A stretch of DNA of 41,435 nucleotides from Scenedesmus sp. PABB004 (Eukaryota), in NCBI GenBank assembly GCA_014905635.1, contig CM026548.1, positions 1,550,001 to 1,591,435 of the forward strand, in the 5' to 3' direction. Within the stretch, counting starts at the first letter, position 1. Every line of letters starts with the position of its first letter. The position numbers were made by a program, and so were the translations under genes. The notes beneath the pieces were generated by a model that saw only the letters and a list, made by a program, of their open reading frames with translations, had not been told where the DNA came from and ran no database searches. Below, piece after piece: positions 1-39,312 of the stretch.

Positions 1-1470
1 AGAGCAAGCATCGTGCTGCGCGGCGGCAAAGGGGTGGGTTGTGAGGGGGCGGCCGCGCGGGCAGGCGACGGCGCTGGCGAGGAAGGCGGCGCAGCGCAGC
101 GGCTGCCGCCGGCACGGCGCTGCCGTCGGCGCCGCGCGCGTCGCACGGCAGCCCTCCTCACCTGCCGCCGCTGCCGCCCGTCACGCGGAGCTGGCAGCGG
201 CTGCCGGCCGCGCCCGCCGCGTAGTCGTAGGTCGCCCACTGGCAGGCGTCCCCCGGGTAGCTCCGGCACGCGTCAGCGCACGCCTCCAGGCTGGCGGCCG
301 ACGCGAGCACCAGCCCGGTGCCCGCGTCGAGCCGCCAGTTGCCCTCGCCCGCGGGCGCAAACTCGGCGACGCACGCGGCGGCGCTGGCCGACCCCGGCGC
401 CGACGTGGCGCGCGGCGTGAAGGGGTTGGTGGTGCCGTTTGCCGAAAAGGTGAACACCTGGCCCCTGCTGGAGCAGGGGCTGCAGGCGAGGTCGCCCGGG
501 GCGCGGTCGTCCCCGCCAAACGTCCCGCTGGCGCAGGGCGCGCAGGGGCCGCCGGCCGCCGCCGCGCCCGTGCCGGCGGGGCACGCTGCACGCGGGCCGG
601 CGAGGCGCGGGGCGGGGCGCGTGAGGCGGAGTGCTGCGAGACGCGCACGAGGCGCAGCCAGCTCCCCGGCGGCGGTGCAGGAGCAAAGCAGCCGCGCCGC
701 GCATACCCACCGCTGCAGTCGGCGGCGCTCGTGGAGCCCTCGTCGGCCGTCGTGCGGCCGTTGGGGCAGGTCGTGCACGCGCCGTCGCTCGCGTTGGCCC
801 GGATGGTCCGCTCCGCGTCCGCGTAGCGGCCCAAGGGGCAGGGCGCCACGCCCGCGAGCGGGCTGGCGGCGTTGGGGTATGCGAAGCCGGGCAGCACCAG
901 GGAGCAGGCCGCGACCGACGCCGACTCGCGGCCGGGCGTGGTCGTGCCCGCCGGGCAGGCGACGCAGCGCGCCGGCTGCTGCCCGTCCGCGCCGAGCCAG
1001 CTGTACGTGCCGCGGTCGCACGGCGCCGCCGTGGTGCCGCTGTAGCCCCAGCCGGGGCGCGGGCGGCACGCCTCGGGCGACCAGAAGCCGCCGGTGCCGG
1101 GCTCAAAAAAGTACGCCGCCGGGTCGGCCGCCGCGACGGCCAGGTCGGGCGTGAGGGTGCCGGCGGGGCTGCGGCGCGGCGCACGCGCGCAGAGGCGGGA
1201 AGGGGGGGGGGAGGGCTGAGCGACGGGGGAGCGCGGCGCGGCAGGGGGCGCGGCGCTGCGCGCCGGTGCTGCGGGCGCGCGCGCGCGAGAGGCGCACCAG
1301 GGCAGGCAGGGCTCGACGTCCAGGTCGTAGCTGACGCTGTCGTTTGCGCCAAACTGGCTGAACGTGTTGTTGTTGCACGTGACGGCCCACCAGATGTCGG
1401 GGGTGGTCCCGTTGGGCGACCGCGACACGAGCATGCCCTGCCCGCGCCGGATGTCTGGCGCGCGACGCGG

Positions 1471-1504
<34 letters not shown>

Positions 1505-4114
1505 CGGGGTGAAGCGTGAGACCGCAGCGCAGCACGCCGCCAGTCGGTGCAGCGAAGCGCGCACCGCCCCCGCCGGCGGCACCCGGCCGCCCCGGCGCGG
1601 CCGCGCCCGACTCACAGCACGACGCGGCCGAGCGCGTTGCCAGCAGCGCGGGCGGCTTGCCCGAGCCGTCGTCGGCGAGGGCGAAGCGGTCGAGCGGCTG
1701 GTTGCGCGCCGACAGCACGCCGTCGCCGCAGGGCAGGCATGAGAATGCGCGCGGGTCGTCGGGCGCCAGCCAGAGGGGCTGGTACTCGCCGGAGGTGTTG
1801 GTGGCGGGGTCGCCGTTGGCGCAGGGCACCACGCTGGGCTCGTCGTACTCGTCCAGCTGCAGGCGGTGCCCCGGCGGCACGACTGCGCGCGGCGTCGGAC
1901 GGGGAGCAGGGCGATGGTGGGTGTGGGTGTGGGTGGGTGGGTGTGGGGGTGGGTGGGTGGGTGGGGGGGGGGGGGGGGGGGGAGCGGGAGGCAGCGCCCC
2001 GCCCGCGCGGCGGCGACCGCGGGGGCAGTCAGTGCGGCGACCGCGGGGGCAGTCAGTGCGGCGCCCGGCGGCGCCCACCGCAGTCGAGCGTCGAGTTGCC
2101 GCCCGGCCAGCGCGTCCAGAGGCCGCGCACGATGTCGCCGCACGGCAGCGTGCCGCTGCCGTTGACGCGGCCGCCGGGGCAGTAGTAGTCTTGCGGGCAC
2201 AGCTGCGCGGGCGAGGGCGCCTCGCCGTCCTGGGCGACGAGCGAGCCGTCGATCTGGCGCGACGGGTCGATCCAGGCAAAGCCAGGGTTCAGCGCTGCGC
2301 GCGGCGGCGCGGCGGCGGCGGCGGAGCAGGTGAGGCCCTGCGCGCAGCCCTCAGTCAGCCCTCGCGTTCACCCCGCCCCGGCCAGGCGCGCGTCGCTGCC
2401 AGTGCTGCTGCCAGTGCATGCGCGGCGCGCACCGAAGCACTCCTGGAACTCCTTGGCAGCCCTGCCGGCGGTGGTCGTGCCGCGGGGACAGTCCTCGCAG
2501 CGCCGCGCGTCGCGCGAGTCGGGCGGCACAAAGCCGGAGCGGTACTGGCCGCGCAGGCAGCGGGCGGGGCCCGCTGTGCCGTTGACGAACCAGCCCGGAC
2601 CAACCACTGGAGGGGGGAGGGGAGGAGGCAGCAGAGCGGGCGCGGCTCAGCCTCAGCGCGCCTGCGCCGAGGCGCGGCCGCCGCGCCGCGGCGAGCCACT
2701 CACTGCAGTCGTCCACCGACGAGGGCTGGCGCGCTGCGCGCGCGTCGGTTCGCAGGTCGGTGGGGCAGGGGGTGCAGTCGACCTGCTTCTCCAGGCCCGG
2801 GTTGTAGGAGTTTTTGGGGCACAGGCCGGCGCCGGGGCGCGACGAGTTGACCGCGACGACGTACCTGTAGCCCGGGCTGTTCACTGCGGCGCGACGGCGG
2901 CCAGGCCGCTGACGTTGATATTTGCGGCGGCGCGGCGCGGCGGCGGCAGCGCGCCCGGCCAGCGCCGGCGCTGGGGGGGGGGTAGGGGCGGGGCGCGGCG
3001 AGCCCGCCCTCACCGCAGTCGTCCCAGGACGCGCCGCCCGTGGTCAGGGTGGTGAGCCCCGTGGTGTCCGCCCTGTTGCAGGTCGCTGGCGGGATGAGCA
3101 GCCCCCTGCAGATGCTGCCGACCGGGCAGTCCTCACACTGCGCCGTATCGTTGCTGCGGTAGGTCCCGGGGAGGCAGCCGCACTGGGCTGGCCGCACCGC
3201 CCCCGGCGCGAGCGTGGTGAGGCCGTCGGGGCAGGGCGTGGCGACCGACTGCGCCGCCGGGCCGCCGCGGCAGAAGGAGCCCGTGGGGCAGACGTCGCAC
3301 GGCGGGTCGTCCTCCTGGTCAGTGCCGTTCCCCCCAGGGCTGGTGGCATTGGCCAGGTAGCTCCCCGGCAGGCACCCGCACTGGCTCAGCCGCCGCGCGC
3401 CCGGCAGGACCGTGGTGAGGCCGTCGGGGCAGAGCGTGGTGACCGACTTGGCGGCCGGCCCGCCGCGGCAGAAGAAGCCGAGGGGGCAGAGCTGGCAGGG
3501 CAGGCCGTCTGCGGGGGCGTCGCCGGTTCCATTGTACAGGTAGAACCCGGGCAGGCAGCCGCACTGCGCCGCGCGTGTCGCGCCGAGGACGAGCGTGGTG
3601 AGGCCGTCGGGGCAGGGAACCGCCTCTGCCGCCGCGCCGCCGGGGCAGTAGGAGCCCTTGGAGCAGGCCTGACACTCCCCGCTCTCCCCAAGAAACTGCC
3701 CGGCGTCGCAGACTGCGGGGCGGGCGCGCGCGCACGCCAGGCGCGTGAGGGGCGGCAGGCCCTGCGCGTGCTGCGGTGCGCAACCCTGGCCCCCAGCGCC
3801 AGCCGTGCGCACCGTTCTGCAGGAGGTGGCGGCCCAACGGCCGGACCGTGATGCCAGAGAGACGCCCTGCGCGGCAGCGGCGCGAGCTCAGCGTGCGCGC
3901 CACGCTGGTCGCACCGCTGCTTGCGGCGCAGGCGGCGCGGGTGCGCGAGAGCCTCTAGCTTCTTACTTAGTGCTGAAAAGCCGTGCGGCCATGCTTCGGC
4001 ACCGCCGGCGAGGCCGAGCGCGAGCAGGGCGAGCAGCGCTGCCGTCGCCGTGCGGGCGCCGCCGCGCCCGCCGCGCGACGGCGCCGGCCCGCCGGCAGCT
4101 CGGCGCGCGCTCAT
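1..4114 (-). CDS. Secreted Cys-rich repeat protein, paralog 1 (multi-exon; 3' end runs off the window)
   Basis: ATG at 4114 gives MSARRAAGG...ALLALLALGLAGGAEA (signal peptide), then GRHLLQ. GT-AG exons encode CxxCxxGxY/CPxGxTT repeats (e.g. VCDAGQFL...CSKGSYCPGG, VNSPGYRY...CPKNSYNPG, VVPPGHRL..., CPAGTG...CASGTFG) and a PAN/apple-like motif SLEACADACRSYPGDACQWATYDY...RCQL. The last exon appears to start at position 15. Confidence 0.85.
3100..3712 (-). repeat. Three tandem ~60-aa coding repeats in one exon of paralog 1
   Basis: CPDGLTTLxxGAxRxxQCGCLPGxY occurs three times; aggccgtcggggcag recurs at about 3220, 3418 and 3601. Confidence 0.85.
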
Positions 4115-4936
4115 TTCAGGGGCGCCGGGGTCTTGGCTGGTGCATGGCACCGCCTCCAGCTCGCGGGAGGCCCAGGCCGGGCGCGCAGCGGCCTGGACGC
4201 GGGCGGATGGCCAGGCGCGCGCGCTGCAGCTGCGACGGTGCTTCGGGCGTGCCAGCGAGTGCTTCGTGTCCTGCGGGATGCGTCCTACACTGGGAGCGGG
4301 CCGCGGCGGTCTGCAGCTGGCGCAGGACAACGTTGCGCTTGCCGCCTGCTTTGCCCCCGCAGGACACCCCTGCTCCCGCCGCGTGCGGCGCGCCCTGGCC
4401 CCACGGCTGCGGCTCACGCAGCTCCCAGAGCTGGATCACGATCTTTGGCGGCCGGCGTGGGCCCTGCCCGCGCTCCGGCGACCGACTGGCCCAGAGCAGC
4501 TGACCTTCACGACGAACCGGCCCTGGCTGGCCGCCGATCGCTCTCTCGCTGGCCCGCACCCCTCCGACAGCGCAGGTGGACCGCACACAGCTGGTGGCGG
4601 CGAGCGTCCCGCCAGGTGGCCGCCGCCGGGCGCGCGCGGGCGGGCGGGCGGGCGAGGTCGCGGGCAGCGGGCGCGGGTGCCGCCGCTGGCCGGTGGCGGC
4701 TGGCCGGTGGGGCCCTGTGCGGCAACGGGGTGTGTGCAAGCCAAGGTCCGTGGCTGGCTGCTTGCTGGAGCGCCTCCGCCGCGCGGGTGGCGCGTCCGCC
4801 GCTGGTGCGGGATGCAGTGGCGTCCACTACAAACCGAGCCCTGCGCGCACACGGCGGGCTGTGGGTTGTGCTGCTTGTGGCGGACGCGCCGGCTGCGTCT
4901 GCAAGACTCGCCGGCTGGCACTCTAGGCCCGCAAGC
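3993..4936. repeat. ~944-bp direct repeat, copy A (signal-peptide coding plus upstream region of paralog 1)
   Basis: Matches 9426-10369 at constant offset 5433; the ORF-track translations in both copies are identical. Confidence 0.95.
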
Positions 4937-5321: not shown

Positions 5322-8300
5322 TCACGGCAGCGGGCTGTCGACGCGCGACGCGCGTGTGCGCAGCAGGGTGCGCTGCGTGTTGTCGGGCGCGTAGGGCTGA
5401 CCCTTGGCCAGCGTGCACGAGGCCACGCTGCCGCCAGCGACGCCAAACCGCACCGCCGCGCAGTTCGAGGACACCGTGCACGCGTCCAGGCAGGCGGCGA
5501 TGCTGGTAAAGGCGCCCGGCGCGCCCTCGGCCGCGGTCATGGCCACCCCGACCTGCCCCGGCGCGTCGTCGCGCCACCAGCTGAAGACGCCGGTGCCGTA
5601 GTCGCGCGGCGCCGCGGACGCGCGCGTGGCGTAGGGGGAGACGACCTTGTAGGCGAGCAGGGCCCTGCAGAGGGGAGGGAGGGGGGGGTGAGCGGGGGGG
5701 GGGGGGATGAGCGCGGGCTCGCCCCGCGCCAGCCCAGCCCGGCCGGCCGGTTGGCTGGCAGCGCCGCTGCCGGGGGCGCACAGCGCTGGCGGCGCGCCGC
5801 ACCCCGAGGTGCCGGGCGGCGGGGCGCGGAGGAAGCAGCGGCGCGTGGCGTAGTCGTAGGTGAGATACTGGCAGGCCGCCGCCGCCCCGCACGCGGCCAC
5901 GCACGCCTCCAGGCTGGCCAGCGGGCTGCCGGGCGCCTCCGACATGCCCGGGTCGCCGCCGGCGCTGAGCCGCCAGTTGCCGTCAATCACCTGCAGCGGC
6001 CGCAGCGGGCGCGGGCAGGCGGGGAGGGCGGACGGGGGTGGGGCGGTCAGAGGTGGCCGGACCGCTGCCGGCCGCGGCGCCGCCGCCAGGCCGAGGCCTG
6101 CCCCGAGGTGGGCGCACCGGCGCAAACGCGACCAGGCACTGCCCCTGCCGTGATGCGCCGACCTCTGACACGGCGGTTGAGGCGAAGAAGTTAAAGCTGG
6201 CGTTGAAGGGAAAGGAGTAGACGGCGCTCACGGGGCACGCCCTGCAGCCCAGCACCTCCACGTCCACGCCGCCCGCCCCCAGGGCAGGGCGGTCGTCGGA
6301 CCCGAAGCTGCCCGCGGGGCAGGGCAGGCACGCAGCGCCCCGTGCCTGCACGCCCGTGCCAGCGGGGCACTCTGCGAGGGCGCAAGGGTGGGACGAGGGC
6401 GGAGGGCGGGAGGGGGTGAGCACCTGCGCGCCGGCCCGCCCCAACAGCCACCACTGTCTGCGAGCCCACTCTGCATGCCCCCACCCCCGCACCGTCGCAC
6501 TCGGTTGCATTCCTGGCGCCCTGCTCGCCGGTGGTGCGGCCGCCGGGACAGGGGCTGCAGGGCTGGCTTGTTGACTCTGTGATCTGGCGCAGAGCGTCAG
6601 CATAGGTGCCTGGCGGAGGGCGGTGGGCACGGTGAGCACAGCGAGCAGCCGCCGGCAGCAGCGATCACGCAGCGACGCCCGGGAGCGGGCGCACACACGT
6701 GCTCCTCACCAATGGCGCAGGGCTCGATGAGGCTGCCACGGATGGTGGCCACGCTGGCGCCGCCGGGCGGCAGCGTGTAGCTGTAGCCCGGCGCCACCCA
6801 GCGGCAGGCGTCCACCGAGGCCGCGCCGCCCGCGTCAGTCGGCGCGTCGGTGGTGGTGCCGTCTGGGCAGGCAGTGCACTGGTTTTGCTCGTCGCCCCTG
6901 GCGTCATTGTACGAGCCCTGGGGGCAGGGCGACGCCTCGCCACCGTAGAAGCCCCAGCCGGCCGGCGTGGTGCAGGCCAGGGGCGAGGTGAAGCCGCGCG
7001 TGGTGGTGTTGAAAAAGGTGCGCTCGGGGTCGCCGGCAGCCACGGCGGGCGCCGCGGTGGCGGTGCCGGTCGGGCAGGGAGTGCAGGGCAGCGCCGACAG
7101 GCCGAACGTGTCGCCGGGCGGGCCGTAGCTGCCCGCGCCGCACGTGACCGCCCGCAGCACAGGCTGGCCGCCATCGCCGGTGCCGTCCTGCCGCAGGCCC
7201 TGCCCGGCGCGAATGTCTGGCGGCGGGGCCGAGGCGGGCGGGGGCGGAGGCTGGTGAGCGGGCCGCGCGCGCGGCGGTCTGGGCAGCAGCGCGCCGCGTC
7301 ACTCACAGCAGGAGGCGGAGGTGCGCGCCACGAGCTTCACGCCGCTCGGCTCCCGGACGATGAGGGTGGGCGTGTCGGCGAATAAGGCCAGCGGCTCGTT
7401 TTTGGCCGACATCACGCCCACCCCGCAGAGCCTGCAGGACGCCGCCAGCGGGTCGCCGGGCGGTAGCCAGGTCGGCTGGTACGTGCCCCAGCTGGCCGGG
7501 CTGCTCGCGTCGCCCGCGCCCTCGCGGTTGACGCACTCCGCCACCTCGCCGTTGGCGCCGGCCAGCGAGTGACCCGGCGGCACCACTGCGGCGGCGGCGT
7601 GGCGGCGGCGGCAGGTCTGCGCCAGCCCGCGCGCCGGCAGCGCGCTGGGCGAGCAGCGCGCTGGGTGGCGCTCGCGGCCCTCGCTCGCGGCCCAGCGCGG
7701 CAGCCGCGGCAGCAGTGGCGCGGCCGCCACTCACGGCAGTCGGCCTCGCTCGTCGCGCCGCGCGTGCGCGTCCACAGCCCGCGCGGGCACCTCACGCGCC
7801 CCACGCCGTCGGCTGGGGCCAACTGCTTGCTGAGGCCCAGCGTGCCTGGGCAATAAAAGTTCTGGCTGCACAGCCACGGCTGAAGCCCCGCCTGCGCCAG
7901 GCGCCGCCCCGTGAGCGAGGCAGGCATGACGCCCCAGAAGAAGCCAGGCAGCAGCACTGGTACACGCACGCGCGGGCGGCGGGGCCGCGGGGCGGCAGGG
8001 GTGAGGCCTCCGACCGTGCGTGGCTCAGCGCCGCGCTGCGGGGGCGGCGCGCCCCGCCGCCGCGCACCTGAGCAGTCGCTCTGCTGCTTGCTGCCGGCGG
8101 CGAGGGTGCTCGAGCCGGCCCGGCAGCGCGTGCAGCGCACAGGGCCGGCGCCGGTGACGGCCCAGCCCTCTCGGTACTCGGCTCGGGGGCACCGAATCGC
8201 GCCGCGGGCCCAGTAGCGCCCCGGCTCGACCTCTGCGGGGCGCGCGCGGGGTGGTGGGCAGAGCCCGCCTGCCTGCCTGCCTGCGGTCGGCAGGCGCGTG

Positions 8301-9547
8301 CTGCCAGGGCGTGTCGTCGCCGCCCGCCGCGGGGCCCGCCGCCGCGGCGCTCACTGCACACGGCTGATGTCGTGCGGTTGGTTGGGGGGTCGGCGGGGTC
8401 GGTCTTGAGCGCGCCAGGGCAGGGCTGGCAGGCAGCCTGGCGCCGCAGCCCAGGCGAGTAGGTGTTGTCGGGGCACAGCCCCGCGCGGTGGTTGCTGCCC
8501 GTGAGGTTGCCCAGCCCCACGCCAGTGGCGTCCGCCACAAAAAAGTAGCCCGGCCGGTTCACTGCGCGCCGGGCATGGGCGGGGGCGCGGCCGCGCGGCG
8601 TGAGGGACGGCAGCGCCCGCCCCTCCCCGTCCAGAGGCGGAGCCGGCGGCGGCAGCTGCGCGCGGCAGCGCCGCGCGTGTCGCGTCGAAGCGCACCGCAT
8701 TGCGAGCGCGTGGCTGCCCGAGGCTGCAGCGTCGTGAGGCCAAACGTCGATGCCTGGCCGGGCGCGGGGGGGCCTGCCTCGCCGTCGTAGTTGCATGAGA
8801 ACTGCACGGACGCGGCCGCGGTGCCGCCAGGGCTGCGCGCGAATGGGCGGCGGTGAGCGCGGCGGTGAGGGCGGCTGCGGCAGCCTGCCGGAGCGGCGTG
8901 TGCCTGTCAACGGCCAGCGCGCATGCGCTGCTCACCAGTAGCTGCCGACCGGGCAGTCGTCACACACCCTCGAGTCGTTCAGGAACCGGCCTGCCCTGCA
9001 GCCTGTGCGGCGGGTCAGGGGCGGGAGGGGTGAGCGCTGGCAGTGCCGGCGGCGCGCACGTGGCGGCACGCACGTGCGTCGCGGCTGCCACTGCGCCGCT
9101 CTGGCAGCTGCTTGGTTCAGCTGAGCGGCCGCCCACGGCGTCGCAGCTCACCGCAGCTCCCGTCAACGGCAGGCACGCGGTTGGCCGAGCAGTCGAGGCA
9201 GATGATCAAGCCGCTGAGGATGTCCTGCACGCACCCGCCCGGCTCGCAGCCTTCGGGGCAGGTGAGCGCCGCCTGCCGCAGCCGTCGCCCAACACCTGGC
9301 GGCCGCACGGAAGGGGTGGCGGCGTCGCTCCGGGACGGCGCGCAGCAGCGGCTGCCGAGGGCCTGCGACGGCATCAGCTAATCTGGGTGGTATGCTCACC
9401 AGACGCTGCTTCGTCTTGACGCCGCGCTTCGGCACCGCCGGCGAGGCCGAGCGCGAGCAGGGCGAGCAGCGCTGCCGTCGCCGTGCGGGCGCCGCCGCGC
9501 CCGCCGCGCGACGGCGCCGGCCCGCCGGCAGCTCGGCGCGCGCTCAT
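5322..9547 (-). CDS. Secreted Cys-rich repeat protein with two C-terminal PAN/apple-like domains, paralog 2 (multi-exon)
   Basis: ATG at 9547 with the same signal peptide as paralog 1. Then GRRLRQ-CPEGCEPGGC..., VNRPGYFF...CPDNTYSPG, CSQNFYCPG, VVPPGH..., CPQGSYND, SLEACVAACGAAAACQYLTYDY, SIAACLDACTVSSNCAAVRF. Stop at 5322. The exons I checked splice in frame. Confidence 0.88.
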
Positions 9548-10369
9548 TTCAGGGGCGCCGGGGTCTTGGCTGGTGCATGGCACCGCCTCCAGCTCGCGGG
9601 AGGCCCAGGCCGGGCGCGCAGCGGCCTGGACGCGGGCGGATGGCCAGGCGCGCGCGCTGCAGCTGCGACGGTGCTTCGGGCGTGCCAGCGAGTGCTTCGT
9701 GTCCTGCGGGATGCGTCCTACACTGGGAGCGGGCCGCGGCGGTCTGCAGCTGGCGCAGGACAACGTTGCGCTTGCCGCCTGCTTTGCCCCCGCAGGACAC
9801 CCCTGCTCCCGCCGCGTGCGGCGCGCCCTGGCCCCACGGCTGCGGCTCACGCAGCTCCCAGAGCTGGATCACGATCTTTGGCGGCCGGCGTGGGCCCTGC
9901 CCGCGCTCCGGCGACCGACTGGCCCAGAGCAGCTGACCTTCACGACGAACCGGCCCTGGCTGGCCGCCGATCGCTCTCTCGCTGGCCCGCACCCCTCCGA
10001 CAGCGCAGGTGGACCGCACACAGCTGGTGGCGGCGAGCGTCCCGCCAGGTGGCCGCCGCCGGGCGCGCGCGGGCGGGCGGGCGGGCGAGGTCGCGGGCAG
10101 CGGGCGCGGGTGCCGCCGCTGGCCGGTGGCGGCTGGCCGGTGGGGCCCTGTGCGGCAACGGGGTGTGTGCAAGCCAAGGTCCGTGGCTGGCTGCTTGCTG
10201 GAGCGCCTCCGCCGCGCGGGTGGCGCGTCCGCCGCTGGTGCGGGATGCAGTGGCGTCCACTACAAACCGAGCCCTGCGCGCACACGGCGGGCTGTGGGTT
10301 GTGCTGCTTGTGGCGGACGCGCCGGCTGCGTCTGCAAGACTCGCCGGCTGGCACTCTAGGCCCGCAAGC
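9426..10369. repeat. ~944-bp direct repeat, copy B (signal-peptide coding plus upstream region of paralog 2)
   Basis: Identical by eye to 3993-4936; degraded similarity continues to about 10520 versus about 5040. Confidence 0.95.
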
Positions 10370-11176: not shown

Positions 11177-12098
11177 TCACACGCTCGCCGGCCGCTCGCC
11201 GTCGAGGCGCGTGCGCACGAGCGAGCGCCAGGGGCTGGCCATGTCGTTGACGGTGCCCTGCAGCAGGGTGCAGGCCTGGGCCGCCCAGGTCGCGTCGGAG
11301 CCGGTCACCGTGCCAAAGTGGACCGCCGCGCAGTCGGTCGAGTCCGTGCAGCGGTTGAGGCAGTCGCTCACGCTGACAAAGGCCGGGGTGGAAACGCTGG
11401 TGAAGGAGGCCATGGCCGTGCCGGCGGTCGCGCCCGCGCTGTCCTTGTACCAGCTGAACTGGCCGCTGCCCTGGTCCGACGGCGCGGCGCCGGCGCGGCG
11501 CGCGAGGCCGGAGCCGGGCATTACCTTGAAGGCGACGCGCTGCTCGCTGCGCGGGGCGCGCATGGGGGGGGGGGGGGGAGAGGGGGGGTCAGCAGATGTG
11601 CAGGCGCGGCGCGACGCGCCGGCGCGGCCCAGCGCGCTGGCGCGGCGCAGCGGCGCGTGCTGCTCACGTGGCGTTGGCGGCGGTGCGCAGGTAGCACTTG
11701 GTGGTGGCGGTGCCGGCGTAGTTGTAGGACACATACTCGCAGTTGTCGGTGCACGCGGCCACGCACGCCTCCAGCGACGCGTGGGTGTTGGGGCTGCTGG
11801 TGGGCCCGGAGACGAGGTTGGCGTCGGGGGTGCTGTTGAGGTACCACTTGCCGTCCAGGACCTGGGCAAAGCCCGTCACGCACGCGCTCGGCAGCGCCGC
11901 GCCGGCGGGCGTGACGGCGGTGCTGTTGAAGACGTTGAGGCTGCCGCCGTAGGAGAAGCTGTACACGTTGGCGGGGCCGTTGCAGCTCACGCACGCGAGC
12001 TCGGCGGCCACGCGCCAGTCGGGGCCGTACGTGCCGCTGGCGCACGGGGCGCAAGCGGCGCCGCTGTTGGCGGCGCCCTGGCCGGCGGGGCACACTGC

Positions 12099-12149
<51 letters not shown>

Positions 12150-15225: not shown

Positions 15226-16077
15226 GGGGGAGGGTGTGCGCAGAATTGTGGAGACCTGAATGTGCCGCGGGACTATAAGGGGGCTTGTAGCGCCCTTCCG
15301 AGCCTGGTGCAGTGAACGCCGGGGCAGCTGCCATCGCAGGCCAGCCCTGCCCGGCCGGGCGTGCGGCAGCCCCGGGCGCCAGTTCGGCCATAACTGGTTC
15401 TTGAAGACATCATATTGTAGCGTGTACAGGCGCACGCGAGGCCGCAGGTGCAGCGCGCGCGGCGGGGGAGGGCCCCGAAGTCGCGCGTGGGCAGGAGTCG
15501 CCATTCTCGGCGTGTGAGACCCCTCGGCGCGCCGTACCGCACGGAGTAGAGCCACACCTCGCCACGAGAGTGCTGCGCGGGCAGCTTTTGTGGCTGGCTG
15601 GCCCCAGCAGCAGTTCAGCCGCCGCGGCCGACGTTGCGCCGGCGTGCGATCGCAGAGGCGCCACTGGGCGCGCCTAGTCCGCTGGGAGTGTTGTATCGGA
15701 GCTGATGCCACAGGCGTGCGCTGCTCAGCGGTCCACTGGCGTGTGCTGCTGAGCAATCCGCTGGCTGGCGCGGGGGCGGCGGTCGCTGTCGCACGGATCT
15801 GTGCTCGGCGGCGGTCCACCTTTACCGCGCAACAACAGCAGTAGCACAGTCTAGCTCCAGCCACCGGACACGCCAGGTGTCAGCGGCGGTTTGATTGTTT
15901 AAGGAAATGGTTCAAGGGCGGAGCGCCGAGCACAGCGGCCGCCTATACCAACCAGGGGGGCCAACAGCTTGGCCGCCAACAGCTTAAGCATGCGCCCCCA
16001 AACCCCCCAAGCGCACAAGCTTTCTTGCCCCCAGCCACAACGCGCGCGCGGTCGGCCACCGTCGGAGCAGCAGCTCC

Positions 16078-19000
16078 TCACGCCACGGCGGTGGGGATGA
16101 TCAGGCTCGCGAGCGTGTCGGCCCGCGTGCGCACCAGCGACCGCCACGTGGTGGCCACGTCAAACGTGCCGCGGCGCAGCGAGCAGGAGTTGACCCGCTC
16201 TGCCCAGGTCGTGGCGGTCCCGCTGACGTCGCCAAACCAGACCGCCGCGCAGTCGGAGCTGTCGGTGCAGGTGTCGAGGCAGCTCGCGACAAACGTCGCG
16301 CCCGCCTGGCCGTTGGGCCGCGTGATGTTCTGCTGCTGCACACCAACCGTGGCGCCGTTGGCGGCCTGCCACCAGGAGAAGAGCCCGGAGCCCTGGTCCA
16401 TGGGCGACGCGGCGCGCAGGCGCCGCCGGCCCGAGGCGTCGCTGGTGGGCATGATCTTGTAGGCCACGCGCGTCAGCGCCCTGCACGCACGGGCGGGCAG
16501 GGGGGTCGGACGGGAGCGCGCGGTGCGCGGCGGCGGCGGCGGCGGCGGCCGCCGCCGCGGGCAGCGCGTCAAGGCAGGGCGCGGCAGCACCCTGCGCGCA
16601 GCGCGCGGGCCACGCACGCCGTCGTCGGGTGGGCATACAGGTAGCAGCGCGCCGCGCCGGCGCCGGCATAGTTGTAGCTGATGAAGGCGCAGGTGCCGGT
16701 GCACGACGCGACGCAGCCGGTCAGGGTCGCGTGGCAGGCGTCGGTGGCGTTTGAGCTGCAGGCCGCGAGCTCGTTGGCCGCCACGTTGGTGGCCAGGTTC
16801 CAGTTGCCGTCAACGACCTGCGCAAACGCGACCAGGCACTGGCTGATGTCGCTCGCGCCGCCCGGCGCGACCGTGGCGGGGGTGAAGGCGTTGTTGGTGC
16901 CGCCGCTGAAAAAGGTGAAGACGTTGCTCGCGCTCGGGCAGGCCGCGCACGCGTAGTCGCCCGCGGAGCGCCACACCGAGCCAAATGTCGCGCTCGCGCC
17001 GGAGCCGCCGCCGCACGCGGCGCACACGCTCGGGGCGGTGCCGGTGGGCCGGGTGCCGGCAGGGATGGTGGTGCCGATGACGCCAGTGCCGGCAGGGCAC
17101 ACTGCGGGCGCGGCCACGGGCGTGGCGCGCGCAGCACTCAGCGAGCGGTCTGCGCCGCATGGGGCCTGCCAGGCCCTGCCAGCCGCGCCACTGGCAGCAG
17201 TGGCAGCATGGGCGCTGCACGGCCCCGCTCACCCGTGCACTCGGCGTCGCTTGTGGCGCCCGTGGACCCGCCCAGCGTCGTGCTGCCGCCGGGGCAGGCG
17301 GTGCAGGTCTGGTTGCCGGTGCTCCAGGTCCGGACGCCGCCCGCGACGGTGAACAGGGGCGTCGCGCCGTCGGTGCTCCTGAAGGTGCCGGCGGGGCAGG
17401 CAATGACGTTGCCCGCGGTCGTGTACGCGTAGCCCAGGTCCAGGTAGGCGCAGTCGTCGGCGCTGTCGCGGTTGACGTTGCCGGTGCCCGCCGCGGCGAG
17501 CGTCGTGGTGCCGACGGGGCAGGCCTTGCACCTATGGGGGGGGGGGCGAGCGCGGAGCAGGAAAGGAGCTGGTGAGCGGCGCGCGCGGCCCATTGTATGG
17601 GCGTGGCATGGGCCTGCACGCGGGCGCACTTGTCGGTGGGATCGGTGGTGCCGTCATTCCAGGTGCCCTTGCCGCAGGGCAGCGCGATGCCGCCACTCAT
17701 GCCGGTGCCGGCGGGCACGACGCACGCCTCGGGCGAGGTGTAGCCGGCGGGCGCGATGGTGCTGGCGGGGCTGATGCCTGCGCCCGTGCTCGTGCCGGTT
17801 GGGCAGCTGGTGCAGGGCTTGGAGTCGAGGCCGTAGGCGGTATTGGGCACGCCAAAGCTGTTGCTGTTGCAGTTGACCGCGCGGTACGAAGGGCTGCCGC
17901 CGGCCGCAGAGTTGGCGGTCTGCACGATCCCCTGGCCAGCCTCAATGTCTGCGCGCGCAGGCGGGCGCCGACGTCGCGCGGCGTGAGCGCGGGGAGCGGC
18001 CGAGCCGGCCGCGGCGGCGAGGCACGCTGCGGCCGCGCGCGCGCAGCGAAACTCACAGCACGCGGCGGTCGACCTGGCCACAAGCTTGACCGTCGGCACG
18101 CCGTTGCCGCTGTCGGCGAGTGCAAACTCGTTGAGGGGCTCTGTGGCCGCTGAGCTGATGCCCGAGCCGCAGGGAGTGCAGGCGAGCGCGGTGGGGTCCG
18201 CCCGGTCGAGCCACTCGGACTGGTACGTGCCCGCGCCCGTGGTGCTGGGGCAGACCGTGACGGTGCCGCCCACGCTGGGCAGGTAGTGGCCGGGCGGCAC
18301 CTCTGCAGCGTGCATCGACGGCCGTGGCGGCGGGCGGCGGTCAGGGCTGCGCGCTGGGGCCGAGGGCGGTGCTCGGGCACGGCGGCTAGCCGTGGCGCGC
18401 CACTCACGGCACTCTGAGTCCGCCGAGGCGCCCAGGCCGCGCGTCCACATGCCGTTGGGGCACGCGGTGCGGCCGTTGTTGTCGGCCCTGGCGGGCAGGC
18501 TGCCCTCGGCTGTTGCCAGGCCGCCCGGGCAGTAAAACTTCTGTGCACACTGCGTGGGAACGATGTTGCCGCCCACATTCGTCCACTGGTAGCCCGGCAG
18601 CAGCACTGTGAGCAGGCAAGGGGTGCGCGGGGCACACACGCCGTGAGAGTCCGCGCAACGAGAGCAGGGCAACGATCGCGCGCCACGCCAGCCGCCAAGG
18701 CGGAGGCGCGCGAGCCGGCTTCCAACTGCAGTGCCGCCGCCGCCGCCGTTGGGACCAACCTTTGCAGTCGACGTCACTTGTCTTGCCGGGGCTGACGGTG
18801 GTGCTGCCGCGGACGCACTTTGAGCACTGGTCGGAGCTGCTGCCAGGGACGTCCCAGTTGGCACGGAACTCACCCTTGGGGCAGCGCGTGGCGCCCGTCG
18901 ACAGCGACCAGTAGCGACCGGGCTCGACCACTGCGAGGAGGCAAGGGAGGTAAGAGGGGGGAATGAAATGTGCGGGCGCGCAGCGCGGGCAGCGCAGCGA

Positions 19001-20003
19001 GGGCAGCGCACGGGTGGCGGCGCAACTCACTGCACACGGCCGACGAGGTGCGGTCCTTGGGCAGTGTGGTCCCATCGGTCTTCAGGCCCTTGGGGCAGGG
19101 CGCGCAGGCGGCCTGGCGGCGGAAGCCAATAGAGAAGGTGTTGGCGGGGCACGGCTGCGCGGTCGGGTCGTTGGCAGTCGTGCCCTTGATGTAGGAAAAG
19201 CCAGGCTTGTTCACTGGGGGAGATGCGAGCCGCGGGCAGGGTGAGGTGCTGCCCAGGCACTGCCAAAGGCACCGCCCCGCTGGCTGCGCAGCCGGGCACG
19301 CTGTGCAGCGCCGCACTCACCGCAGCCGGTGCGGAATGGGGAGCGAGTGCCGCGCGTGGTCAGGCCAAAGGTTGAGGCGGTCTCCGCGGAGCCCGGGTCG
19401 GCAGCGGCGTTGTAGTTGCACGAGATGCGGCCCACCGCAGCAGCCGACTCCGTGGCCGTGCCGCCAGGGCTGCGGCAGCGGTGCAGCGGCGCGCAGCGCA
19501 ACGCGCTCAGCGCTGGGCGCGCGCGCGCGCGCAGCGTGAGGTCAGGTGGCGTGAGCTGCGCCGCGCGCTGCTCACCAGTAGAAGCCAATACCGCACTCAG
19601 TGCAGGACGAGCCGCTGAGGTAGAAGCCCGGCCGGCAGCCGCAGCTGCCATCCCTCGCGGGGACGCGGTTGTTGTCGCACTTGAGGCAGCGGAAGCCTCC
19701 CTGCGTCGCGGCCGGCACGCACGACCCCGCGTCCGTCGAGCAGCCTTCCGGGCAGCTGTCCTGGTCGCCCTGCAGCAGGCGCCTGCCCGAGGCTGCGGTG
19801 GCAGGAGGGTGGAGGGGCGGGTTGCGTCAAGGCGGCCTCCGCGGTCAAGCCGCCCGCGAGGCTGCTGCAGCGCGCTGCGCGGCGTACGCGCGGCGCCATC
19901 GGTGTGTGCGGCACCCCAGGCACGCACCGCTGGCCGCGGCGGGGGCCGCGAGCGCGAGCAGCGCCAGCAGGAGCAGCCCGGCGAGGGGCGTGGGGGGCGG
20001 CAT
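16078..20003 (-). CDS. Secreted Cys-rich repeat protein with two PAN/apple-like domains, paralog 4 (multi-exon)
   Basis: MPPPTPLAGLLLLALLALAAPAAASG; same module order as paralog 3; CAQKFYCPGG, CGKGTWND, TLTGCVASCTGTCAFISYNY, FVASCLDTCTDSSDCAAVWF; stop at 16078. Confidence 0.88.
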
Positions 20004-20024
20004 GGCTGCGCTCGCTGCACGCGC
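19025..20024. repeat. ~1-kb near-identical direct repeat, copy B (exons 1-4 of paralog 4)
   Basis: See 14234-15225. Confidence 0.95.
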
Positions 20025-20506
20025 GGTAAGGCTGATTGCGCGTGCGCATGTGCACTCAAACGAGCTAGGCTGGAGATTCGGAGCGAGTCGCCGACCTTCC
20101 GAGCCTGGTGCAGTGAACGCCGGGGCAGCTGCCATCGCAGGCCAGCCCTGCCCGGCCGGGCGTGCGGCAGGCCCAGGCGCCCGTTCGTGTGGCTCTCTGG
20201 CTGTAGCACGCCCTGCACTACCGTGTTCACGCGCTCGCGAGGCGACCGGTGCACCGTGCGCGGCCCCGAGCGCGGCTGCTTTTTTGGGACAGCCCGCAGG
20301 TCACCGGCGCTGCGCCGCTGCCCCTGCTGCGTGGCCCGACAGCCCGAAGGCTAGCCCTAGGCATCGGGGCGCACGCTGCAGCTCACCCGCTGGCCTCAGA
20401 CGGCAGCGCACGCTGCCGAGTCCCATCGCTGTCCATCGCTCCCCTCCGTGCCGCGCCATGCGCGCATCGCGGGAGCTCTGAGCAGAGTACGCCGCACGCT
20501 TGCGTC
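20004..20506. promoter_or_regulatory. Probable bidirectional promoter between paralogs 4 and 5
   Basis: Head-to-head ATGs at 20003 (-) and 20507 (+), about 500 bp apart; positional inference only. Confidence 0.5.
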
Positions 20507-23500
20507 ATGGGCTACCGAACGGCGCCGCGCCTGCTGCTGGCGCTGGCCTTGATGGCCGCCGCGGCGCGCCCAGACGTGCTCGCCGCCGCGCCGCGCCGTG
20601 CGGAGCGCGGTGGCGGCAGCGACCTGCCGGGTGCGGGTGACGGCGGATTCAGTCGATGGGTGGGGCTACCGCTGCAGGCGCGAGAGCTGAGCGCCCCCGC
20701 CGCGCCGCTCGCAGGCCGCGCGCTGCTTCAGCAGACGAGCTGCCCAGACGGCTGCGACACCGGCGCTGCTGGCGCCTGCGTCATCGACAGCACGGCCGGC
20801 GACTTTCGCTGCACGCAGTGCGCGAACAACCGCACGCCCGCCACCGACGGCAGCTGCGGTGGGTGCCGCTGCAGCCGCCGCGCCGCACGTGCCGCCGCGC
20901 CCTGCCGCCGCTGGCGGCGTGATGCGCTGGCGAGCGTCGAGCGCGCCGCCGCCACTGCTGCTGTCGCCGCCGCTGCTGCTGCGAGCAGGCTGCAAGCCAG
21001 GCAGGTTCCTGGCCGCCGGACCGCCGCGGCGCTGCGAGCTGTGCCCCGCGGGCAGCTGGTGCCCAGGCGGAAGCGAGACACAGTCGGTGGCAACGGCGTG
21101 CAGCACCGTGGCCGCCGGCCTCACCACGCGGGGCCCGGGGGGCTCCTCGCAATCCGAATGCGGTGAGGCCCAGCGGGGACGCGCCTGCCCATCCTCTGCG
21201 CGCGCGCGCAGGCTGCCGTCCCGACGACCAGGCCGCCGCGCACCGCGCGCTCACCGCGCGCGCGCGCCGCTTTCCCTGCAGTGAATGCGCCGGGCTACAG
21301 CTACAGCGTCGGCGTCAGCGGCGTGCTGAGCGTGCAGCCCTGCCCAGCCGACACCTACTCGACTGGCTTCCGGCGCCAGCCACGCTGCACGCCCTGCTCG
21401 CGGGGCCTGAAGACTGAAACCACCGGCGTCGACACCAACCGGACGTCGGCTGACGTGTGCCGTGAGTGCAGCTGCTTTGGCCCAGGCCGCTCGGATGCAG
21501 GCTGCAGGCGGATGCGCCAGCGCAACGCGTGGCCGGCGCTTACCATGCAACTGCGCTGGCCGTGCCGCAGGGGTCCCACCGGGCTGGCGCTGGGGCGTCA
21601 ACTCGGCCGTCCGGTGCCCACGCGGGACGTTCCGCGCGGGCTGGGCGGCGCGTGGAGAGGCGGCGGCAAGCTGCGCGGCGTGCAGCACCGGCACCACGAG
21701 CCCTGGCGTCGGCGGCACCAGCTGCTCAGGTGCGAGCGCGGGGCGCCAGGGCGGGCTGCGGGGCCAGGCAGCCTGCCGCGTTGCTGTGCGCGCTGTCGCG
21801 CCTGGGCAGCACTGACGCTGGCTGGGCTGTGCCAACAAGCCGCGCTGCCATGCGCAGCCGTGGAGCCGGGCTTTTACTGGCTGGACAGCTCCACCGTGGC
21901 GGCGTGCCCGCTGCGCAGCTACTGCCCCGGCTCGTCCGCCACGCCAGCGCCAGGCGTGGGCCGCTTTGCCTGCGACACTGTGCGCCTGGGCCTGTGGACC
22001 AAGGGCACGGGCACCAACTCGTCAGCTGGCTGCCGTGAGTGGCGCCTGCCGCGCGTGGCGGGGCTGCTGCCAGGCGCAGGTCGCGCGCGCACCGCCGCAC
22101 GTGCACCCACGGCGCGGCGGTGCCCGTCTGGCCAAGCCCTGCAGCCCACCCTGCCGCCGCCCGGCCGTACTCGCGCAGTGATTCCACCGGGCTACGGCGT
22201 GGACGGCGGGGCGGTGGTGAAGTGCAGCAACAACGTGGGCGGGCAGGGCTTCTACCAGCCCGACTGGCTGCCCGCGCTCTCGACCGCGCCCTGCAAGCCG
22301 TGCGGGCCCGGCATCCTCTCGGAAGACAGGGAGCTCACGGGCGCGGCCGGCGAGCCCGGGCTGGTCCCTCGCACCGCCAACGTGTCCTGCTGTGAGTGCG
22401 CCGCGCCCAACCCTGCGCCAGCGAGCGCCGCTGGGGCCGAGCGCTGCGCGCGCCTTGGTGGCGCCACAAAGGCGCGCTCAGCCGCAGCGCCCACGCCGCG
22501 GCGCGCATGCGGCCTGCCCAGCTCGTTGCGCCGCCTGCCGCCGACCGCCGCAGACATCACGGTCGGTCAGAGCATGGTGAGCTCGCCCGCGCAGGACGTG
22601 ACAGCGCTGAGCCCCGTCCCACCCTTCCGCGGCGCGAGGTGCAGCGGCAGCAGCCAGTTCAGCCTGGTCGCCGCGGGCGTGCGGCGCTACGGGCTGTCGC
22701 CCCTGCGCTGCGGGGAGTGCACGCGCGGCACGTTTGTGGGCAGCCCCTCCGCCAGCGGCAACATCGGCCTCGCCTCCTGCAGCACCCTGGTTGCTGGGTA
22801 CGGGTACGACCCCGCCGCCGGCACGCTGGATGCGGCGGTCAGCAGCACCAAGCTCTGCCCAGGTGCGCGCGGGGAGCGGGCCAACAAGGGGCGCGGCGGG
22901 GCCTGGCCGAGCCGCAGCCGGGGCGCGCATGCCCCCCCCCTCGCCCCGCGTGCTCATGCTGGCCACATGGCCGCACGCGCCGCCCCGCAGCGAGCAGCAC
23001 CAACGCGGTCGCCAACGCCACGATCAACGTCGGTGGCACCAGCTGCGTGTGCGTGGCGGGCACCGGCGCCTACACCTTTGCCTCCGGCTGCAGCGCGTGC
23101 AGCAGCGGGACCTACAGTGCGGGCGGCACCACTGCGGCCTGTACGGCGTGCGGGCTCAACGCCGGCACCAGCGCGCTGCCGCGCACCTCGCCCAGTGACT
23201 GCTCGTGCAACGTGGGCTACGTGGGCTATGCGGCCGGCAGCGGCTGCACCACGTGCGCGACAGGCTACTACAGCTCCAGCAGTAGCCCCTTCACCTGCGC
23301 CGCGTGCAGCGCCGACAGGACCACCACCGGCCCGGGCACAGGCGGCATCGCGTCGTGCGGTGAGCGGCGCCGCTGCCACCCCCGCTGCGCGCGCGGGTGG
23401 CGACGCCGGACCACTGCTTTTGTGTGCGGCCAGCATGAGCGGTCGCTCATGCTCGTCGCGCCGCTGCGCGCGCGCCCGCAGTGTGCCCCGCCGGCACGGG

Positions 23501-26500
23501 CTCGCCGACCGCCGGCGGCACCTGCAGCAGCTGCGCCTTCGGCAGCTGGGGCGCACTCGATGCCACGGAGAGCTGCACGCAGTGCGCTGTGCCTAACGTG
23601 ACGGGCGTCACGTTTGGGACGGTCGGCGCCGTCGCGCTCATCACCACCACGACCACCAGCTCAACGAGCACCGCCGACTGCACGCGCGGCGTGCTGGTGG
23701 GCGGCACGGGGCTGACCGTGCAGACCAACGCGGCAGCCACCGTGCAGGCGTGCGCGACTGCGTGCAACGCTCTCAACGCTGCCAACGGCACCTGCGCCTT
23801 CATCACGTACACGCTGTCGACTGCGGTCGACCCCGAGGCCGGTACGACCGGCATTGTCGCGTCAAGCTGCAAGCTGCACCTCGTCAGCAGCACCACCACC
23901 ATCACTACGAGTCCAACGTGCGTGGTGTGCTGTGTGCGCACGTGGACTGCCACACACGGCAGCGCTGTGCAGCCCCAGCCGCACCGGGGCCCTGCGCAAC
24001 TCGCTGCCCGCTGCCGCAGGTTCCGCGTCGCTTACAAGCTATCCGGCGGCAGCACCTACTCGTGGTGGCGCCACACTGCCATCGACGTGGCCAGCATCGG
24101 CGGCCGCGCGCTGTCCAACAGCACCAACACCGTGTCGGCGTGCCTGGCCGACTGCAGCGCCCGGACGGCATGCGCGGCGGTGCTTTTTGACCTTGGCGCA
24201 AGCTGGGCGGCGGCCTCAATCGTCACCTGCACTACCGTGACGGGGCAGTCTGCCACGGCCATCTCGCCGCTGCTGCAGCGCACGCTGGTTGCAGACCTGG
24301 CCGCGACCGCCAGCAACGTGACCAGCCCGCTGCCCGCGGCACCAGGTGCGTGCAGGCACCTACCTGCGCGCGTCTCAGATGGTCGGCCCAGGGCAGCTCC
24401 GTGTACACACACCGCTGGGAGCTCACGCCAACCCCGCCCCACCCTCGCGTGCTCGCAGCGGCCACCTGCCCTGTGGGGTCCTACGGCACCACCAGCTGCA
24501 CCAATTGCACAGCTCCCAGGACCACGCTCACCAACGGCACGACCACCGTCGACGGATGCGGTGAGACGCGCGTGCTGCGTGTGTTTATGCGGCGCCGCGC
24601 GGGCGCAGCCCTTGTGCTCTGCGTGACGACGAAGCCGCCCACCTGCCAGGCCTGACCGCGCCATCCTGCGCCGGCACGCCCCCGCAGTGTGCCCCGCAGG
24701 CACGGGCTCGCCGACCGTCGGCGGCACCTGCAGCAGCTGCGCCATCGGCAGCTGGGGCGCGCTCGACACCACGGAGAGCTGCACACAGTGCTCTGTGTCT
24801 AACGTGACGGGCGTCACGTTTGGGACGGTCGGCGCCGTCGCGCTCATCACCACCACGACCACCAGCTCAACGAGCACCGCCGACTGCACGCGCGGCGTGC
24901 TGGTGGGCGGCACAGGGCTGACCGTGCAGACGAATGCGGCCTCCACCGTGCAGGCGTGCGCGACTGCGTGCGACGCGCTCAACACTTCCAACGGCACCTG
25001 CGCCTTCATCACGTACACGCTGTCGACTGCGGTCGACCCCGAGGCCGGCACGACCGGCATTGTCGGATCAAGCTGCAAGCTGCACGTCGTCAGTGGCAGC
25101 ACCACCGCCCTATCCACGTGCGTTGGCGTGCTGTGTGCGCACGCGGGACTGCCACACACGGCAGCGCTGTGCAGCCCCATACCGGGGCCCTGCTCAATTC
25201 GCTGCCCGTTGCTGCAGGTTCCGCGTCGCTTACAAGCTATCCGGCGGCAGCACCTACTCGTGGTGGCGCCACACTGCCATCGACGTGGCCAGCATCGGCG
25301 GCCGCGCGCTGTCCACCAGCACCAACACCGTGTCGGCGTGTCTGGCCGACTGCAGCACCCAGACAGCATGCTCGGCAGTGCTGTTTGACCTTGGCGCAAA
25401 CTGGACGGCGGCCTCAATCGTCACCTGCACTACCGTGACGGGGCAGTCTGCCACGACCATCTTGCCGCTGCTGCAGCGCACGCTGGTCGAGAACGTGGCG
25501 GCGACGTCGACCGCGGACAACCCCATCCCAGGTGCGCTGCGCGGGGCTTCCCGCGTGGGGCTGCCGCTTGGGCTGTCGCTGTGGGGCGCGGTCGCCACCG
25601 CATGTTTGCTGACCCGCCTGCTTGCACGCGCGCAGCGCCGATCTGTCCCATCGGCTACTACGGCACCACCAACTGCACTGCCTGCCCGAGCGGCAAGACG
25701 ACAGTCAGCACCGGGTCGACAACCGTCGCGAGCTGCGGTGCGCGTGCCTCGAGCGCGCGCGTGCTGGCGGCTGCGCGCGATGCTGCTGCCACAGGGCTGC
25801 CCGCGGCCACCCGCCCCAACCCTGCCCCTCGCCGCTGCGCCTTGCAGTTTGCAACATCGGCTCGTATGGCACCGCCGGTGCCACCGGCACGTGCACTGCC
25901 TGCCCTGCGGCCACCACCATAACTACGACGACCTACTCGGCAGCGTCGCTGGTCGTCACGCCGGTGGGCGCCACCCTCAGCACCGACTGCAGCCGCGGCC
26001 AGCTGAACACTCCGCCGAGCCTGTATGTGATCACCGACAGGAAGACAAACGTCATCAATAAGGTCGGAGAGTGCATCGACGCCTGCGGCGCGACTCCCAA
26101 CTGCCACTTTGTGACATACACCACGAATACAGCCAACGGGCAGGCCATTGAGGTTCCCGGCTCTACCAGCGTGACCACCTGCCTTGTCACAACCCTGAAC
26201 AGCACTCTAGCGGCCAGCGGGTGATCTGCGCGGGAGCGCGTGCCTGCACGCCCTGCTCCCTGCACGCACTGGGCGCGCGCGCAGAGGGCGCCGCAGCTGC
26301 CCGCGCTGCGATGTGCTGCACGACAAGCACCGCTGCCCCCCCCCCCAACCAACCACCCACATGCGCAGGTACCGCGTGGCGTACAAGCGCGTCACGCCCG
26401 TAGGCGGCTACTCATGGTGGAAGCACATTGCCAGCACCGCCGCGGCCAGCATCGGCGGTGTGCAGCTGGCCTGGCCGGGCGGCATCCCCGCGACGCGGAC

Positions 26501-26696
26501 TGTGAGCAGCTGCCTGACCACCTGTGACTCGGTCTTTGGGTGCGCCGCTGTGCTCTTCAACCTGGGAACGGAGGCTGGCCTGTCGACCAGTACGGCTGTG
26601 GTCGATTGCACGCTGGTGGCTGGCGTGGTCGGCACGACCACCCGCACGGCGACGCTGTATCGCGACGCCCAGGCCAGCATCACCTCAGCGCTGTGA
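20507..26696 (+). CDS. Secreted Cys-rich repeat protein, paralog 5, with a triplicated C-terminal PAN-pair module (multi-exon)
   Basis: MGYRTAPRLLLALALMAAAA signal peptide; GRALLQ-CPDGC; VNAPGYSY...CPADTYSTG; CPLRSYCPG; VIPPGY...; three copies of the [CxxC exon + CxxACx6-8C..ITY + RVAYK...YSWW...CLxxC...CxAVLF] module; TGA ends at 26696. Confidence 0.85.
23481..25490 (+). repeat. Internal tandem duplication in paralog 5 (about 23481-24290 versus about 24687-25490)
   Basis: Near-identical DNA including the intron, offset about 1200. A third, diverged module lies at about 25847-26696. Confidence 0.92.

Positions 26697-39280: not shown

Positions 39281-39312
<32 letters not shown>

Follow-up and report, generated by a model that had tools for sequence, protein, structure and literature searches.

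Five subtelomeric genes for secreted, cysteine-rich Ephrin_rec_like and PAN/apple proteins in the green alga Scenedesmus sp. PABB004

Described systems and the algal locus

The var genes of Plasmodium, the VSG genes of Trypanosoma, the FLO genes of yeast and the EPA genes of Candida are subtelomeric contingency families. A locus that resembles them in part lies at one end of a contig of the green alga Scenedesmus sp. PABB004 (CM026548.1 of assembly GCA_014905635.1, forward-strand positions 1,550,001 to 1,591,435). This 41,435-bp stretch is referred to here as the window, and positions are counted from its first base. Five of its genes, G1 to G5, encode secreted proteins built from Ephrin_rec_like (PF07699) and PAN/apple modules and form an array 14.5-41 kb from the telomere. 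Like var, VSG, FLO and EPA, they are paralogs for extracellular proteins near a chromosome end, they are recombination mosaics and their repeat number varies. Unlike those families, the family in the window is small and unanchored, is not the terminal element, shows recombination within its array only and gives no evidence of silencing or switching. The reading favored here, with a probability of roughly 0.6, is that this family, whose named members are all from Scenedesmaceae, consists of secreted, disulfide-rich modular glycoproteins, most likely of the cell wall or matrix, and evolves by gene and module duplication together with local gene conversion. As a kind, tandem, fast-evolving families of secreted cysteine-rich proteins with gene conversion are well known.

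Other described proteins are similar in composition. The VSPs of Giardia and the CxxC surface proteins of ciliates share the cysteine-rich, CxxC-containing make-up (ciliate clusters also occur among the Ephrin_rec_like neighbours in an atlas look-up, which serves as a lead only). The window proteins differ from Giardia VSPs in that they have no C-terminal transmembrane tail, and none of the 345 window open reading frames (ORFs) scanned has a VSP-family Pfam match at E≤0.01. The PAN/apple domains of Toxoplasma MIC4 bind carbohydrate. MIC4 (4a5v) and the apicomplexan PAN/apple adhesins and wall proteins are, like the window proteins, secreted and cysteine-rich with tandem PAN/apple domains. However, the algal proteins carry their PAN pairs C-terminal to a long chain of modules resembling those of tumour necrosis factor receptors (TNFR-like), the similarity is restricted to the domain and the setting involves neither micronemes nor host invasion. 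Chlamydomonas MST1 (8tx1, named by its depositors 'ephrin type A/B receptor-like domain-containing protein') is a green-algal extracellular glycoprotein which, according to two papers, forms an extracellular polymer (PMC10602792, PMC11015965). It differs in its length of about 2000 amino acids and its hydroxyproline-rich helices, and the text consulted reports no PAN domains; the similarity is marginal and involves the cysteine modules only. Full-length homologs with the same module order as G1-G5 (30-36% identity) are found in Scenedesmaceae: WIA44263.1 and WIA43795.1 of Tetradesmus obliquus and KAF6251784.1 of Scenedesmus sp. NREL 46B-D3. No published description of the family, and no literature on subtelomeric gene families in green algae, Scenedesmaceae included, was found in a search whose coverage stops short of subscription journals and bioRxiv supplements.

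The five genes are as follows.

1-4114, minus strand: G1, partial (3' end beyond the left window edge), 10 exons at 3967-4114, 3014-3712, 2704-2883, 2433-2606, 2079-2294, 1616-1882, 1298-1454, 711-1168, 162-585 and 1-15; from Pfam (PF07699 and a PAN_1 match) and the gene model
5322-9547, minus strand: G2, 13 exons, 900 amino acids; from Pfam (PAN_1 and several PF07699 matches) and the gene model
11177-15204, minus strand: G3, 13 exons, 861 amino acids; from Pfam and the gene model
16078-20003, minus strand: G4, 11 exons, 914 amino acids; from Pfam and the gene model
20507-26696, plus strand: G5, 17 exons, 1370 amino acids, three PAN-pair units; from Pfam and the gene model

Protein architecture and possible location

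The window has a G+C content of 75% and closes a 1.59-Mb contig (for the whole assembly, PMC12571836 gives 39.8 Mb, 77 contigs, 78.5% G+C and 1.3% repeats). At this G+C content, long open frames are found in every one of the six frames. Genes were therefore placed by the periodicity of G+C at third codon positions (GC3), Pfam searches of stop-to-stop ORFs and a custom splice-aware dynamic-programming gene finder. The first-round model of this finder was kept, with an intron limit of 400-450 bp; self-training was unstable and merged genes. The first exons of G1 and G2 were corrected manually. Ephrin_rec_like and PAN_1 (PF00024) matches fall into two blocks, one of minus-strand ORFs between 1 and about 20000, the other of plus-strand ORFs between about 21400 and 26200; none of the 45 plus-strand ORFs within 1-20500 (under or between G1-G4) has a Pfam match. 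The tRNA and Rfam scans of the window returned nothing. G4 and G5 are arranged head to head and transcribed divergently from a 503-bp spacer (20004-20506). In the five models, splice sites have the form GT(G)(A/C)G...CAG and introns are 85-254 bp long. One G1 intron contains a run of 38 G residues (1472-1509); metagenome contigs likewise end in G runs at 11553.

All five proteins begin with a signal peptide. In the alignment, this is followed by a small N-terminal cysteine knot (absent in G1), Ephrin_rec_like units (these are the TNFR-like cysteine modules), a central conserved cysteine-rich part with a hallmark SCYI motif, more Ephrin_rec_like units and a C-terminal PAN/apple pair. Within the window, G1 encodes the signal peptide, four N-terminal Ephrin_rec_like units, the central cysteine-rich region and the first PAN domain. 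PF07699 exceeds the gathering score on single ORFs of all five genes (best score 49.4 bits, in G1). PAN_1, with a gathering cut-off of 21.4 bits, does so on window ORFs of G2 (32.7 bits), G3 (23.9 bits) and G5 (23.0 bits). The GenBank models of the same genes score higher: KAF8066436.1 has PF07699 at 189 bits in six stretches and PAN_1 at 63.4 bits, and KAF8066437.1 has PAN_1 at 57.9 bits. Conserved cysteine columns are present in the alignment of the Ephrin-like plus PAN exon. Cysteine counts are even, at 54-94 per protein (6-7% of residues), and each protein has 11-17 CxxC motifs and 3-17 N-x-S/T glycosylation sequons. A hydropathy scan (cut-off 1.6) detected neither a membrane anchor nor a hydrophobic C-terminal tail of the glycosylphosphatidylinositol (GPI) type in G1-G5. 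The sole hydrophobic window of G1-G4 is N-terminal. G5 has one window above the cut-off, an internal one at residue 758 (1.68), which is borderline and is not read as a probable membrane segment.

A first-pass annotation, made from the letters of the window alone, had proposed at least five paralogs of a green alga with a shared module order, encoding secreted cysteine-rich PAN proteins within about 41 kb of a telomere. Pfam, the spliced models and the alignment bear this out, and the end coordinate given there, 26696, is the stop codon of G5. The spliced models of G1-G5 agree at 87-99% with GenBank protein models of Scenedesmus sp. PABB004, which were found afterwards and which support the green-algal origin.

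Among solved structures, a profile of 15 full-length homologs gave its best match to the apple domain of MIC4 (4a5v; E-value: 3.7e-5) and also matched Mst1, the mastigoneme protein of Chlamydomonas (8tx1; E-value: 6.4e-4). Both matches are weak, and both proteins are extracellular. Atlas look-ups with the central region gave scores of at most 0.89 and pointed to Ephrin_rec_like clusters only (again a lead only). Pfam detected only PF07699 and PAN families, with no EGF, CUB or sushi domains, on the window ORFs, KAF8066436.1, KAF8066437.1, P0045, P0093 and KAF6251784.1. Membership in the metazoan SCUBE/SVEP1 proteins, which the automatic names of distant paralogs would imply, is not borne out, as these domains are missing.

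The family appears to be narrow in range. When a profile of the Ephrin-like plus PAN exon was used as query, 155 of 1.84 billion representatives matched at E≤1e-3; all 11 matches that carry a species name are from Scenedesmaceae and the rest are metagenome proteins. Annotated Scenedesmaceae members are called 'hypothetical', 'Apple domain-containing' or 'ephrin receptor-like'. Other members are located on contigs of 448, 741 and 189 kb. The 448-kb contig, of the PABB004 genome, carries a second cluster with adjacent models of 5039 amino acids (about six G1-G4-like units) and 3305 amino acids (three G5-like units), or roughly nine units in all, which are 50-57% identical to the window genes. 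Distant members (about 30% identical, automatically named Scube1 or SVEP1) are located on two contigs other than that of the second cluster.

A possible location for these proteins is suggested by a published proteome. The maternal cell-wall proteome of S. obliquus 633 includes KAF6251784.1, which is 30% identical to G3 over residues 38-855 (E-value: 3e-71), and classes it as secretory (TargetP), with an apple domain but without a transmembrane helix (PMC11839794). Its single identifying peptide there, GSSDSCYIQR (two peptide-spectrum matches), is common to three database proteins (PMC11839794). This peptide falls exactly in the conserved SCYI motif of the family. The same paper states that PAN/apple domains bind carbohydrate, citing Tordai et al. 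1999 (PMC11839794).

The proposed model for the function of these proteins is as follows. The cysteine modules would form a stiff stalk, and the PAN/apple pairs would bind wall carbohydrate or protein, both by analogy with the roles of these domains elsewhere. The proteins may in this way cross-link or decorate the wall, for example that of the mother or the daughter cells at autospore formation. Scenedesmus walls matter in practice for harvesting, cell disruption and colony formation, yet few wall proteins are known; the proteome peptide links a previously uncharacterised Scenedesmaceae family with Ephrin_rec_like modules and PAN/apple pairs to the wall.

Several points weigh against a wall or matrix role. 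The localisation comes from one unique peptide with two peptide-spectrum matches, in another species and for a homolog of 30% identity. Expression and gene boundaries of G1-G5 are those predicted by gene models, and the binding function of the PAN pairs is presumed from other PAN/apple proteins. The ratio of non-synonymous to synonymous substitutions per site (dN/dS) between old paralogs is about 0.8, which is high for structural proteins; because synonymous sites are saturated and GC3-constrained, it is merely a rough sign of fast protein change.

The signal peptide and the missing anchor would also fit a set of soluble recognition or defence lectins, released to the medium or periplasmic space and binding foreign glycans (of chytrids, aphelids, bacteria or grazer cues) rather than building the wall. 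Carbohydrate binding by the PAN/apple domains of MIC4, the best solved-structure match, and the fast evolution and lineage-specific expansions of the family agree with such a role. The only localisation datum, however, puts a homolog in isolated wall material, and the lectin explanation is considered unlikely.

Module duplication and gene conversion

The family grows and changes by two routes: whole genes are duplicated in tandem, and modules are duplicated either within an exon or as blocks of exons. The intron phases are suited to this: of 59 introns, 43 are phase 1, 14 phase 2 and two phase 0, and most lie just after the last cysteine of a module. With phase-1 introns at module borders, modules can be duplicated without breaking the reading frame. 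The resulting class 1-1 exon pattern is known from animal extracellular proteins. Here it occurs in a green alga. Two duplications within genes were identified.

3158-3674, minus strand: tandem repeats in exon 2 of G1, about 3.5 Ephrin_rec_like units of about 198 bp (66 amino acids); 72-78% identity by self-blastn, and translation
23468-25505, plus strand: tandem duplication of 1206 bp in G5 (23468-24307 and 24674-25505), 92% identity, introns included

The duplication in G5 adds one PAN-pair unit, and dN is 0.11 and dS 0.20 between the units. The extra 66-residue units of G1 and the three PAN pairs of G5 agree with the differences in repeat number that had been noticed at first pass.

Protein identity between pairs of G1-G5 is 35-46%, except for G3/G4 (61%). 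Two tracts, A and B, depart from this level.

3993-4936: tract A, copy 1, upstream of G1 plus the first 122 nucleotides of coding sequence; 0 mismatches in 944 bp against 9426-10369
9426-10369: tract A, copy 2, upstream of G2 plus the first 122 nucleotides of coding sequence
14234-15224: tract B in G3, from 21 bp before the ATG to 6 bp past exon 4, introns 1-3 included
about 19025-20023: tract B in G4, the counterpart of 14234-15224

Tract A consists of about 820 bp before the ATG and the 122 nucleotides of signal-peptide coding sequence, so that the signal-peptide exons of G1 and G2 are identical there. On both sides identity drops to about 45%, the background level at this composition. A gene or transposon in the upstream part of tract A was considered and rejected: there is no coding potential (best segment score at most 10, versus 89.5 for a control exon) and no Pfam match. 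Tract B (about 990 bp) has about 98% identity, with 20 substitutions and one 8-bp indel, and drops sharply at both ends to flanks of 44-60%. Introns of G3 and G4 are 99-100% identical inside tract B and unalignable outside it. The tract-bearing genes are otherwise about 45-65% identical, and outside the tracts dN is about 0.47-0.66 and dS about 0.58-0.74. The strong divergence broken by sharply bounded near-identical patches, as first described from the letters, is thus confirmed. The equal identity of introns, upstream DNA and exons, with two borders for each tract, indicates recent gene conversion rather than selection or a single unequal crossover, as judged from the sequence. In this array, neighbouring paralogs pass on segments of about 1 kb to one another by conversion. 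Together, phase-1 exons that permit module shuffling and kilobase-scale conversion between tandem paralogs make the locus a clean green-algal example of both processes.

Upstream of G3 and G4, where the two sequences have otherwise diverged, there is also a separate identical stretch of 76 bp (15294-15369 and about 20093-20168). It could be a promoter element common to both genes or another small tract of conversion.

The second cluster on the 448-kb contig contains, internally, many 40-residue windows of at least 90% identity, which indicates local homogenisation there too. Between the five window proteins and the two second-cluster models, a single one of all 40-residue windows scanned reaches at least 80% identity, at exactly 0.80. 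This scarcity of closely similar windows indicates that the recombination seen is local to the array; in this protein-level comparison with one other cluster, no exchange between the two loci was seen.

A related population was sampled through two freshwater-metagenome contig sets, X1 and X2, each of which holds small shares of the window sequence. Most of the pieces are 85-99% alike to the window. Among the 231 pieces of X1, 15 are at 99% or above, 47 at 95-99%, 87 at 90-95% and 82 under 90%. In one X2 contig, 1124 letters long, 23474 is joined to 24680 and exactly one PAN-pair unit of G5 is missing; this junction represents either copy-number variation or an assembler jump between the 92%-identical repeats. 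Of the 533 differences between the window and the related population, 40 were classed (16 synonymous, 17 non-synonymous and seven intronic). The corresponding population ratio (pN/pS) is roughly 0.35, and there is no sign of positive selection in this small, non-random sample. A pattern search for related loci in the metagenome contigs gave 225 matches, none of which was confirmed.

The first-pass annotation had compared the array to var-, VSG- and FLO-type variable surface systems. As a contingency-type locus, it would encode alternative surface or adhesin variants, perhaps with variegated or exclusive expression. Conversion (including swaps of promoter and signal peptide) and module gain or loss would generate strain-specific wall or adhesin variants, and the chromosome-end position would raise the rate of change. 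The pressure could come from parasites, viruses or grazers, or from self-recognition in colony formation. The distance of 14.5-41 kb from the telomere, the recent conversion tracts and module-number changes, the fast protein divergence (dN about 0.5, identity 35-61%), the extent of tract A over promoter and signal peptide, the metagenome contig without one PAN-pair unit and other recent duplications in the terminal 15 kb all agree with this. Against it stand the missing membrane or GPI anchor, the small size of the family (five genes here, roughly nine units in the second cluster and few distant members), the near absence of similar windows between the clusters, the pN/pS of the non-random sample of 40 differences and the presence of ECM29 and another gene between array and telomere. 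Nothing indicates that G1-G5 act as a surface coat that can be switched, as parasite coats can. What stands from the first interpretation is the description of secreted, subtelomeric mosaic paralogs that differ in module number; the analogy to variable surface systems has little support, and a contingency locus is quite doubtful. If that reading were true, fungal adhesin variation of the FLO/EPA type would have a counterpart in a photosynthetic, free-living organism. Should the family prove to vary from strain to strain and to be associated with chromosome ends, surface variation would become a question for free-living algae as well, but the evidence at hand does not show this. The favored reading of wall or matrix glycoproteins likewise allows that the chromosome-end position may raise the recombination rate.

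Public models, assembly and the chromosome end

The sequences are already public in GenBank, yet they are unstudied and mis-modelled. KAF8066436.1 (3620 amino acids, hypothetical protein of Scenedesmus sp. PABB004) joins G4, G3, G2 and G1 as one protein. Its identity is 98.9% to G4 (residues 1-908), 95.3% to G3 (923-1743), 87.3% to G2 (1770-2594) and 98.3% to G1 (2576-3457), after which the model goes on into the second PAN domain. KAF8066437.1 (811 amino acids) is the C-terminal part of G5, with 99.3% identity over G5 residues 563-1370.

On the strength of KAF8066436.1, G1-G4 would be one giant gene for a polyprotein of 3620 amino acids. This is very improbable. Signal peptides lie inside the merged model, which runs straight across them; every unit begins with an ATG and signal peptide of its own and finishes at a stop codon in a homologous position, and the spacers of 0.9-1.6 kb between the units are without coding potential. 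The Tetradesmus homologs, moreover, are single units of 884-912 amino acids. Given the separate starts, signal peptides and homologous stops and the non-coding spacers, G1-G4 are treated as separate genes, and corrected models are provided for a family in which four genes had been fused into one public model. The 5039- and 3305-residue models of the second cluster look fused in the same manner. With fused models in both clusters, the gene count of the genome is therefore probably underestimated.

Least probable is the explanation that the near-identical patches are assembly or polishing artefacts: 944 bp at exactly 100% with a twin 5.4 kb away is a pattern that mis-polishing can exaggerate, but the two independent tracts differ in identity (100% and about 98%) and in position relative to the genes, the second cluster behaves alike and a metagenome contig of the related population (covering 19590-20643) is continuous over the upstream border of the G4 tract.

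The remainder of the window, between G5 and its last base, contains the following features.

28682-30761, minus strand: gene X, an ORF of 543 amino acids (GC3 0.94) with no Pfam match, unrelated to the array and located between it and ECM29
about 31370-40581, minus strand: ECM29 (proteasome adaptor, housekeeping), from colinear sub-threshold Pfam matches, an exon match and the gene model
41225-41435, plus strand: telomere array of about 30 copies of TTTAGGG

An ECM29 exon used as query matched ECM29 of Tetradesmus obliquus (E-value: 4e-66, 52-63% identity). The G-rich strand of the telomere array runs 5' to 3' up to the last base of the window and so points toward its end, which marks a true chromosome end. 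Only about 640 bp separate the start of ECM29 from the telomere array, and a subtelomeric repeat zone is absent at this end. With gene X and ECM29 between G5 and the telomere, the G1-G5 array is not the terminal element.

The terminal 15 kb has been rearranged recently, and two further duplications were observed in this region. The 400 bp adjoining the telomere repeats (40821-41220) are an inverted copy, with 99.25% identity, of 30604-31003, which comprises the promoter and the first 30 or so codons of gene X, so that the two copies flank ECM29 as inverted repeats. Identity between them ends where the TTTAGGG array starts, as though the telomere had been placed on a gene start that was duplicated and cut short. 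A direct repeat of 460 bp (26960-27419 and 31357-31828, 94% identity) is also present. Of its two copies, the one that follows shortly after G5 resembles a duplicated piece of the last exon, at the 3' end of ECM29.

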